DNA of 64,000 nt from Fibrobacteria bacterium (GTDB lineage: Bacteria > Fibrobacterota > Fibrobacteria > UBA11236), in NCBI GenBank assembly GCA_021155885.1, contig JAJNBB010000004.1, positions 5,725-69,724 of the forward strand, read 5' to 3'. Shown one piece after another: positions 1 to 55,850 of this stretch (position 1 is its first letter; each line of letters starts with the position of its first letter). The translations under genes were made by a program, and so were the position numbers. Below the pieces are notes generated by a model. The model was given only the letters and a program-made list of their open reading frames with translations. It made no database searches and had not been told where the DNA came from.

Positions 1-2
1 TC

Positions 3-686
3 GACGCGGACCCGCGCACCGCCTTCTGGCTCAAGGTCGCCGGCGTCCGCCGCGTCGTTTCCTACCGCCGCGCCTTCGGGGTCCTCTTCGACGAAACGTT
101 TCCGTTACCCGAGCCGTCGATTCATCAGGCGGACAGGGACATGCGGGTGGTGGAGGAATGGTTGAAGAGAGACGGGGGTCGGGGGACGGGAGTCGGGGGT
201 GAACACAAAACACAAATGTCTCCCTCTGCATCCTCTCTCACAACCCCCGACCCCCGACCCCCGACCCTTTCCGCTCCCTGGGTCCTCTCCGTGTGGACCC
301 GCAAGGCCTCGAAGAACTGGCCCCTGGAGCGCTGGGAGGCCCTGATGGAAAAGCTGACGGGCGCCGGCATTCCCTTCGTGGTGCTGGATCCTCCCGATGG
401 CGACGCGGCCTTCCGGGAATTCCGGCGGCGCGGACGCGCGGACTTCCTGCGGGGAACGCTGCCTGAAATCGCCGACGCGGTCCGTGCCGGCGCCGGGGTG
501 ATCGCCACCGACAACTTCCTGGGGCACATGGCGGCCTATTACGGCAAGCCCGTCTTGTGGATCAACCTGAGTTCGCCCGCCGCGCAAGTCGAGCCCCGCG
601 GCCCGCGCACCTTGGCCGCGCACCGCCCCTCCGTCGAAGAAGCCTGGCGCACCTTCGAAAACCTGCGCGGACCGGCACCCGCCTAG
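3..686 (+). CDS. ADP-heptose:LPS heptosyltransferase (glycosyltransferase family 9), 5'-partial
   Basis: Frame 3 is open from the window edge (TAFWLKVAGVRRVVSYRRAFGVLFDETFP...HQADRD) and continues into the 141..686 ORF. It has GT9 C-terminal-domain motifs (VWTRKASKNWPLERWEALMEKL, GIPFVVL, GTLPEIADAVRAGAGVIATDNFLGHMAAYYGKPVLWI). The N-terminus lies outside the window. Confidence 0.75.
   Translation, partial: DADPRTAFWLKVAGVRRVVSYRRAFGVLFDETFPLPEPSIHQADRDMRVVEEWLKRDGGRGTGVGGEHKTQMSPSASSLTTPDPRPPTLSAPWVLSVWTRKASKNWPLERWEALMEKLTGAGIPFVVLDPPDGDAAFREFRRRGRADFLRGTLPEIADAVRAGAGVIATDNFLGHMAAYYGKPVLWINLSSPAAQVEPRGPRTLAAHRPSVEEAWRTFENLRGPAPA
171..267. repeat. G5/C5-run inverted-repeat element, copy 1 (inside the GT9 CDS)
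   Basis: Left arm 171-200 is gacgggggtcgggggacgggagtcgggggt and right arm 243-267 is acccccgacccccgacccccgaccc. By hand alignment 23 of 25 positions are complementary. The loop is about 42 nt. The arm style matches the element at 55769-55850. Confidence 0.8.
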
Positions 687-55768: not shown

Positions 55769-55850
55769 GACGGGGGACGGGGGTCGGGGGTCGGGGGGGA
55801 GAAACATCACTCTCCTGTTTTCTCCCATCCCCCGACCCCCGTCCCCCGTC
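55769..55850. repeat. G5/C5-run inverted-repeat element, copy 2 (between cydA and cydB)
   Basis: gacgggggacgggggtcggggg (55769-55790) is the perfect reverse complement of cccccgacccccgtcccccgtc (55829-55850). That gives a 22-bp stem with a 38-nt loop. The element begins 8 nt after the cydA stop. Confidence 0.85.

Follow-up and report, generated by a model that had tools for sequence, protein, structure and literature searches.

An in-frame heptamer-array hairpin encodes the interdomain linker of a GT9 glycosyltransferase in freshwater Fibrobacteria

Introduction

How a repeat that can fold into a hairpin comes to lie within a protein-coding gene, and whether the gene survives, are the questions raised by the first few hundred bases of a 64,000-nucleotide stretch of Fibrobacteria DNA. 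This stretch, called the window throughout, represents positions 5725-69724 of contig C24 of an uncultured freshwater Fibrobacteria metagenome-assembled genome (MAG), here termed G000 (2.59 Mb, 101 contigs, 64.6% G+C). Window coordinates are used unless a contig is named. The window begins inside a gene for a glycosyltransferase of the GT9 family, and within the frame of this gene lies an inverted repeat with arms of tandem G-rich and C-rich heptamers. The best-known examples of palindromic repeats in a reading frame come from Rickettsia. The original prediction, made from the window sequence, offered two readings: either an element resembling repetitive extragenic palindromes (REPs) or the miniature transposable elements with inverted repeats known as MITEs is tolerated as a peptide in a permissive linker, or the gene is inactivated or split. 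We find that the gene is intact. Probably, the hairpin is a tolerated in-frame passenger comparable to the Rickettsia palindromic elements (RPEs), an ancient heptamer element that supplies the GT9 linker and leaves the enzyme whole.

Results

The GT9 gene is one uninterrupted open reading frame (ORF) that encodes both domains of the GT-B fold. From the orthologues, its start was set to C24:5310 (MQNYRYF...), 414 nt before the window, for a protein of 366 residues. The frame is open from window base 3 to the stop codon (Table 1) and reads ...HQADRDMRVVEEWLKR-DGGRGTGVGGEHKTQMSPSASSLTTPDPRPPTLS-APWVLSVWTRK..., so that the element lies in it without a stop, as had been predicted. A further 242 codons of this frame precede the window and include the N-terminal domain. 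Recovery of this part, which had been proposed as a check, confirmed a single ORF. Measured in this frame, the G+C content at third codon positions (GC3) amounts to 0.83 before the element and 0.85 after it. All residues that are invariant over 17 orthologues are kept, among them D16 of a GD motif and the lysine of a KNWP motif, which align with the GD and KHWP motifs of WaaC, and which we take to be the equivalents of the WaaC catalytic residues. Among the orthologues, HQAD at the end of the N-terminal domain is invariant, as are the W, S, T, R and K of APWVLSVWTRK at the start of the C-terminal domain. The suggestion that the gene has been inactivated or split is thus contradicted by the single ORF with both domains and their invariant residues in place.

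The assignment to GT9 is based on several lines of evidence. The protein matches PF01075 with 25.2 bits (cut-off 22) over residues 133-331, and a profile of the orthologues matches E. coli WaaC (2GT1) across both domains (E 1.7e-8), at a sequence identity of only ~15%. The AlphaFold (AF2) model shows two Rossmann-like domains in GT-B arrangement, with a predicted local distance difference test score (pLDDT) of 87.5 and a predicted template modelling score of 0.84. The best Foldseek matches, with TM scores of ~0.7 (0.72 for WaaC, WaaF and 3TOV), are 2GT1, 6DFE, 2H1H, 1PSW and 3TOV, which comprise WaaC, WaaF and the Veillonella GT9 protein 3TOV. The orthologues are labelled ADP-heptose:lipopolysaccharide (LPS) heptosyltransferase by JGI. 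In close relatives, the gene adjoins a GT4 gene and a Polysacc_synt flippase gene in a polysaccharide cluster.

The placement of the element between the two Rossmann-like domains, also part of the original prediction, agrees with the model. In AF2 numbering, which counts from MQGAP, residues 147-181 have no secondary structure and pLDDT is below 50 at residues 149-170; the element peptide (residues 146-179) therefore accounts for the whole linker. This region is hypervariable in the orthologue alignment. The peptide string given in the original prediction is present, although the element-encoded peptide starts one residue earlier, with the D encoded at 171-173.

At the DNA level, positions 171-270 consist of GAC, the heptamers GGGGGTC GGGGGAC GGGAGTC GGGGGT, a 42-nt loop, and ACCCCCG ACCCCCG ACCCCCG ACCC. 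An inverted-repeat search reproduced the 23/25 complementarity that had been counted by hand, with arms of 25 nt at 176-200 and 243-267 (92%), and also returned a longer arm pair at 168-202 and 234-268. The RNA of 160-280 is predicted to fold with -60.0 kcal/mol, compared to -43.1 +/- 3.6 kcal/mol for dinucleotide shuffles (z -4.72), none of 200 shuffles being as stable; the linker alone gives the identical fold (z -3.7). The 12-mer GGGGGTCGGGGG, with up to one mismatch, has 10 matches in the window against 1.8 expected, a number reached by none of 100 shuffles. The matches are confined to the GT9 element, the copy between cydA and cydB and one stray site, in agreement with the earlier view that the two elements are built from the same units. 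With four tracts of 3-5 G separated by 2-4 nt, the G-arm has the potential to form a G-quadruplex; as the original prediction suggested, such a structure or the hairpin might be an obstacle to replication or transcription. The 42-nt loop contains no ORF of its own. An Rfam search with the element returned only look-alikes of eukaryotic miRNA hairpins far below threshold, and neither terminator nor promoter signals were detected at the element. Internal initiation at the in-frame ATG at 216-218 was considered and rejected, because this ATG is not conserved in the orthologue P0002 or in those of G009, G010 and G001.

Table 1. The GT9 gene, the hairpin in its linker, and the related copy elsewhere in the window.
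Feature	Positions	Strand	Remark
GT9 (WaaC/WaaF-like) glycosyltransferase gene, 3' two-thirds	1-686	+	stop codon at 684-686
Last helix of N-terminal domain (HQADRDMRVVEEWLKR)	123-170	+	AF2 helix 131-146
Whole predicted hairpin, extended stem and loop	166-279	+	minimum free energy structure
Element-encoded peptide DGGRGTGVGGEHKTQMSPSASSLTTPDPRPPTLS	171-272	+	34 residues, entire interdomain linker
5' G-arm, four tandem heptamers	173-200	+	translated GGRGTGVGG
Loop, A/C-rich at start (GAACACAAAACACAAATG...)	201-242	+	translated EHKTQMSPSASSLT
3' C-arm, ACCCCCG x3 then ACCC TTT	243-270	+	translated TPDPRPPTL
First strand and motif of C-terminal domain (APWVLSVWTRK)	273-302	+	AF2 strand 182-185
Second copy of the GGGGG(A/T)C family in the window	55772-55847	not assigned	between cydA stop (55761) and cydB start (55871)

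The GT9 element belongs to a dispersed family. About 48 hairpins are present in genome G000, each with a 5' array of G-rich heptamers and the complementary array at its 3' end, in two sub-types with the units GGGGG(A/T)C (G5WC) and GGGGGTT (G5TT). Genome-wide, the arrays comprise 2-12 units. The loops vary from 17 to ~170 nt and are not conserved, yet they are often A/C-rich at the start, a feature that the GT9 copy has in common with many other members; many loops begin with a stretch like AACACAAA and end T-rich. Paired elements always have the G-arm first, on either strand, and the opposite layout with the C-array first was not found genome-wide. The converse layout could form a hairpin equally well.

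The genome search for intragenic and intergenic copies, which had been suggested with the original prediction, was based on a crude GC3-based gene call. It placed 28 copies between ORFs of the same direction, seven between divergent and five between convergent ORFs. Most copies are a few to tens of bases away from the neighbouring genes, and about 10 lie just upstream of gene starts. Only two of the ~48 are found deep inside ORFs, in a genome that is ~84% coding, and the family is therefore strongly excluded from coding DNA. The GT9 copy is one of the two, a member of a dispersed family inside an ORF without a stop. The other is a probable, degenerate copy of the G5TT sub-type (C77:1572-1651), in frame in the linker that joins the CN_hydrolase and NAD_synthase domains of NadE, which has a degenerate G-arm and encodes PGLGLGGWRSGAGSQAARTSAEFALTPNSQPKAPN. 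It does not count as a firm second case, since its fold is not significant (z -1.0) and the NadE linker is variable in all relatives. The family is not specially stop-free: its elements are open in 3.4 of six frames, compared to 3.8 for random genomic windows. As a third of the elements also have a length divisible by three, an in-frame survivor is not improbable, provided that the peptide is tolerated.

For the age of the insertion, orthologues were taken from 11 genomes of the same genus and three genomes outside it, together with 86 metagenomic orthologues. The G-arms of three sister species align base for base with that of G000 (CGGGGGTCGGGGGACGGGAGTCGGGGGT), namely those of G010 (CGGGAGACGGGCGACGGCAGACGGGAGA), G001 (CGGGAGTCGGGAGTCGGGAGTCGGGAGG) and G009 (CGGAGGACGGAGGACGGTAGACGGTGG); in at least these four species, boundary, codon phase and the count of four units coincide. 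In a GT9 tree calculated without the linker columns, the arm-bearing species are found in one clade of seven (support 93/97), and G002, G003, G006 and G007, which have no such arms, lie outside of it. Among the 86 metagenomic orthologues, about 12-15 keep, at the same codon and in the same heptamer phase, a peptide of the G-arm type (xGGRxxGVGx; for example VGGREPGVGS, VGSRESGVGR or DGGRRTVDGG), after which comes a C-arm peptide rich in Pro. The loop can be aligned as well between G000 and a 79%-identical relative (P0002). Judged from these alignments, the insertion in the GT9 linker appears to be ancient and clade-wide, and the common site across relatives argues for an old, tolerated passenger and not for a broken gene.

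The linkers of the orthologues outside the clade are unrelated to the element, so that a repeat-free linker of similar sequence, which would have spoken against an insertion, is not seen there. The linker is 16-79 residues long (median 32, 61 orthologues), with 34 residues in G000 and 21-27 in the most distant orthologues. Because of this small difference, the element seems to have replaced an older linker. The expectation of an insertion was thus correct with respect to the unrelated outgroup linkers, but not in the sense of 33 added residues. Linkers of 62-79 residues occur in P0013, P0015 and P0046, with the G-arm peptide still at the start; they suggest that the loop of the element already in place has received additional insertions.

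The strength of the hairpin varies among the relatives. Linker fold z-scores are -6.9 in G009, -3.7 in G000, -2.6 in P0002, -2.0 in G010 and -0.9 in G001, and not significant in the 80%-identical relative P0001 (z +0.2), G004, G005 and G008. A consensus stem of the four species has 16 arm pairs, three of which have changed on both sides and still pair. With four sequences, this is suggestive only, and too weak as a proof of selected pairing by covariation.

The arms of the GT9 element are built from the unit that is dispersed in the respective genome: G5WC in G000, GGGAGTC/GGGTGAC in G001 and GGTGGAC/GGTAGAC in G009. These units differ by just 1-2 bases. G5WC arrays, with 75 matches in G000, are absent or very few in the other members of the genus. 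In G010, arrays are rare, none of three checked PF05635 genes has a G-rich unit, and the GT9 arms have decayed; G-rich arrays are likewise rare, and the GT9 arms decayed, in G004 and G008. The presence of species-specific units at one common site is unexplained, and is to us the most interesting part of the data. A single old insertion that has been homogenised with the family and a repeatedly refilled site both fit. A single old insertion is favoured, because phase and unit count are identical among the species.

Refilling has precedents at intergenic sites. At the cydA-cydB junction, a G5WC element is present in G000, heptamer hairpins of GAATTAC/GAGTTAC are found in G001 and G011, G004 has arrays of GGAATGA together with a long insert, and G008 has a palindrome of the REP-like type. 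The junction has no element in G009 and G005, where the cydA stop overlaps the cydB start (ATGA); the insert therefore moves two genes that would otherwise overlap tightly 108 nt apart. A comparison of filled and empty cydA-cydB junctions revealed no obvious target-site duplication. The grpE-dnaK junction has a similar variety of element types between species.

The REP-like palindromes form a separate family in the sister genomes, with the sequences GTA[A/G]GGGCGAC...GTCGCCC[C/T]TAC and GTAGGGGCAAAT.... One of them, an unrelated, perfect 21-bp hairpin, is part of the GT9 reading frame at the linker of G007 (L005:1933-1978), and another is nested in the loop of the heptamer hairpin of G010 (L002:1973-2033). 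Such palindromes are also present in the NadE linker of G001 (L037:1618-1645) and, in 1-4 copies, upstream of dnaK (L093-L098).

Some heptamer arrays bracket genes. At C4:1418-1925, G5AC arrays of four units on one side and 12 on the other enclose a gene for 121 residues (C4:1454-1816), which matches PF05635 (E 1.6e-38) and TIGR02436, the four-helix bundle of the 23S rRNA intervening sequence (IVS) protein. Inverted tandem heptamer arrays flank each of the four PF05635/TIGR02436 genes of G000 on both sides, and the unit differs from gene to gene: GGGGGAC at the C4 locus, and GTTGGTT, ACAGGGA and GGACTTA at the other three (C25:42700-43330, C63:14170-14660 and C15:41030-41500). Only the C4 gene has the array type of the GT9 element. 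In the sister genomes, nine of 14 PF05635 genes checked are bracketed likewise, and the flanking units match the dispersed arrays of the same genome in G005 (GGTAGAC) and G009 (GGACGTC). The genus members without PF05635 genes (G002, G006 and G007) have no arrays. The short copies may derive from, or be serviced by, a PF05635 cassette that carries identical arrays. A simple rule of one unit per species does not apply, as several families of units coexist in each genome, together with several PF05635 paralogues that each have a unit of their own.

Discussion

The locus is probably best understood as follows. Positions 166-279 would be a gene-less copy of the dispersed hairpin family, with arms that are inverted arrays, each with 3-5 heptamers in tandem (GGGGG(A/T)C in the 5' arm, its complement in the 3' arm), and a variable loop in between. 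The ancestor of a clade of freshwater Fibrobacteria would have acquired this copy in the interdomain linker of the GT9 gene, with a length that was a multiple of three and without a stop in the host frame. The G-arm would be translated into Gly, Arg and Val and the C-arm into Pro, Thr and Asp, a composition that suggests a flexible, disordered tether. This tether would have taken the place of the original linker of 21-27 residues. We infer that the peptide is actually made, in which case read-through translation would yield DGGRGTGVGGEHK or TQMSPSASSLTTPDPRPPTLSAPWVLSVWTR, and that an ongoing homogenising process holds the arms species-specific. The reading of a tolerated element in a permissive linker, one of the two originally offered, is supported by the intact ORF, the disordered linker, the unrelated outgroup linkers and the family of ~48 copies.

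Several points weigh against this scenario. The hairpin is unevenly preserved, having decayed in P0001, G004, G005 and G008, so that selection on its structure is no more than a possibility. At the GT9 site, neither a duplicated target site nor an allele without the element could be defined. The cydA-cydB and grpE-dnaK junctions carry unrelated element types in different species, which leaves room for repeated re-insertion at the GT9 site as well. The derivation of the short copies from a PF05635 cassette is based on the common arm sequence only. Finally, the MAG G000 is 87.5% complete, so that absences, for example of a REP-associated tyrosine transposase (RAYT), are soft.

Among the alternatives to a single tolerated insertion, independent insertions at a hotspot, or replacement of an older hairpin by the active family of each species, deserve most attention, although we regard them as rather unlikely. 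They would account for GT9 arms that follow the dispersed unit of their own genome (G5WC, GGGAGTC and GGTGGAC in G000, G001 and G009), and have a parallel in the cydA-cydB junction, which has G5WC, GAATTAC, GGAATGA or REP-like elements depending on the species and no insert in two of them, in the similar behaviour of the grpE-dnaK junction, and in the palindrome nested within the G010 copy. It would then be surprising that boundary, heptamer-to-codon phase and the count of four units are identical in all four species, that the units are only 1-2 bases apart, that the G000 loop aligns with that of a 79%-identical relative, and that decay is graded over ~15 orthologues in a manner that looks like vertical descent. 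A role of the hairpin as a selected mRNA or DNA element appears unlikely. It could be a ribosome pause between the domains, a site for RNase III similar to IVS stems that sets mRNA half-life, a G-quadruplex switch, or a contingency locus, where a surface-glycan gene would be frameshifted whenever a single 7-nt unit is gained or lost. The hairpins are strong in G000 (z -3.7) and G009 (z -6.9), weaker in G010 and P0002, three arm pairs have changed on both sides and still pair, and in G007 this linker contains a perfect 21-bp hairpin of unrelated sequence. A polysaccharide cluster with GT4 and flippase genes is classic ground for phase variation, RNase III cuts heptamer-bearing IVS stems (PMC4990558), and G-rich heptamers form G-quadruplexes in vitro (PMC4692102). 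On the other hand, the structure has been lost in several members of the clade, including an 80%-identical relative, and arms made of a single unit remain complementary without selection on pairing. The site matches no Rfam family and shows neither a terminator nor a promoter signal. Every arm-bearing orthologue has the same four-unit G-arm, and hence no variation in unit number is seen.

That the GT9 gene is a pseudogene, or has been functionally split into two domain genes, is very improbable. A hairpin of -60 kcal/mol with four G-tracts is unusual in an ORF, and the family is otherwise excluded from coding DNA. Yet there is neither a stop nor a frameshift, the coding GC3 signature is present on both sides, the invariant residues of both domains are all kept, the in-frame arrangement is conserved in many species, and no conserved start signal exists for a separate C-terminal product. 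Least credible is the view that the hairpin is no repeat element at all, but the by-product of a Gly-rich followed by a Pro-rich linker in a genome of 65% G+C. Codons of the types GGN and CCN are inherently complementary, and many orthologue linkers are Pro-rich. This idea is already contradicted by the exact periodicity of 7 nt, which is not a multiple of three, by arms that match the dispersed intergenic family unit for unit, by a stability that dinucleotide shuffles never reach, and by the absence of such arms from outgroup linkers.

If a single tolerated insertion is accepted, the different units at the GT9 site call for an explanation. One possibility, which we put forward tentatively and consider less probable than not, is that the arms at this orthologous site have been rewritten in each species to the genome-wide unit (GGGGGWC, GGGAGTC or GGTGGAC), while frame, phase and count were kept. 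Should this be correct, all arrays of a family would be kept uniform, those within coding DNA included, by a trans-acting, sequence-specific process. A participant in such rewriting may be the cognate PF05635 protein, which is encoded between identical arrays.

The closest analogues of the GT9 element are the Rickettsia RPEs (PMC10969869) and the heptamers of Xanthomonas and Nostoc (PMC4692102). RPEs are dispersed palindromes of ~100-150 bp that are found in frame in unrelated metabolic genes and are translated (PMC10969869). The GT9 element resembles them as a translated, in-frame palindromic repeat that is placed where the fold tolerates it. The likeness is an analogy only, because the architecture of heptamer arms with a variable loop is different; there is probably no sequence relation. 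RPEs have a conserved internal sequence and peptide, whereas conservation in the present family is limited to the heptamer arms and does not extend to the loop. Almost one in two RPE copies is intragenic, compared to about two of 48 here, and Rickettsia contrasts with a free-living freshwater Fibrobacteria MAG.

G-rich tandem heptamers have been described by Rehm et al. 2015 for Xanthomonas (GGGAATC) and Nostoc (GGGGA(C/T)T, of the short tandemly repeated repetitive, STRR, type) (PMC4692102). They share with the present family the tandem 7-nt G-tract units, often four, the dispersed location mostly between ORFs of the same direction and near gene ends, the convergent inverted pairs that are able to form stem-loops, and the under-representation in coding DNA with few intragenic copies. 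In the present case, the unit is GGGGG[A/T]C, the phylum is another one, and an intragenic copy forms part of the reading frame at a domain linker and is common to orthologues. No protein family tied to the heptamers is named in PMC4692102. A link to a protein is provided by the ORF-bearing 23S rRNA IVSs of Coxiella and Leptospira with their S23p/PF05635 protein (Warrier et al. 2016, PMC4990558). These also form a long stem from terminal inverted repeats that contain tandem heptamers, and the gene-bearing relatives in G000, such as C4:1418-1925, likewise hold a PF05635 ORF in the loop. The GT9 copy differs in being without an ORF of its own and in residing in a protein-coding frame instead of rRNA.

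The REP/MITE-like label of the original prediction is appropriate in so far as the element is a dispersed hairpin repeat. Like REPs and REPINs, the elements are short, abundant, species-specific and mostly extragenic, but their arms are G-only heptamer arrays and not palindromes with a GTAG head. A RAYT/REP origin was rejected, since a search for RAYT (PF01797) gave no match in the heptamer-rich genomes G000 (87.5% complete), G001, G005, G009, G020, G021 and G023; weak PF01797 matches only were noted in G010 and G008. The terminal inverted repeats recall MITEs, but the only gene-bearing relative encodes a PF05635 protein. To our knowledge, no transposase activity has been described for this protein. 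We therefore describe the family as a heptamer-array hairpin tied to PF05635 genes, and not as a RAYT-type REP.

The outcome known for RPEs is thus extended to the widespread, unexplained G-rich heptamer arrays and to a free-living lineage, and suggests that a repeat can make up an entire linker between domains and still be retained across speciation. Since a translated orthologous site fixes position and phase, the GT9 linker is a rare marker for genome-wide unit change, suited to the question of how arrays change their unit together and whether PF05635 proteins are involved. Heptamer arrays extend to another genus of the same family, although congeners of the three genomes concerned have none, and expansions therefore seem patchy and species-specific across the family: GGGCGTC is found in G021 (74 matches) and G023 (24 matches), and GGGAGTC/GGGGGTC in G020 (36 matches).

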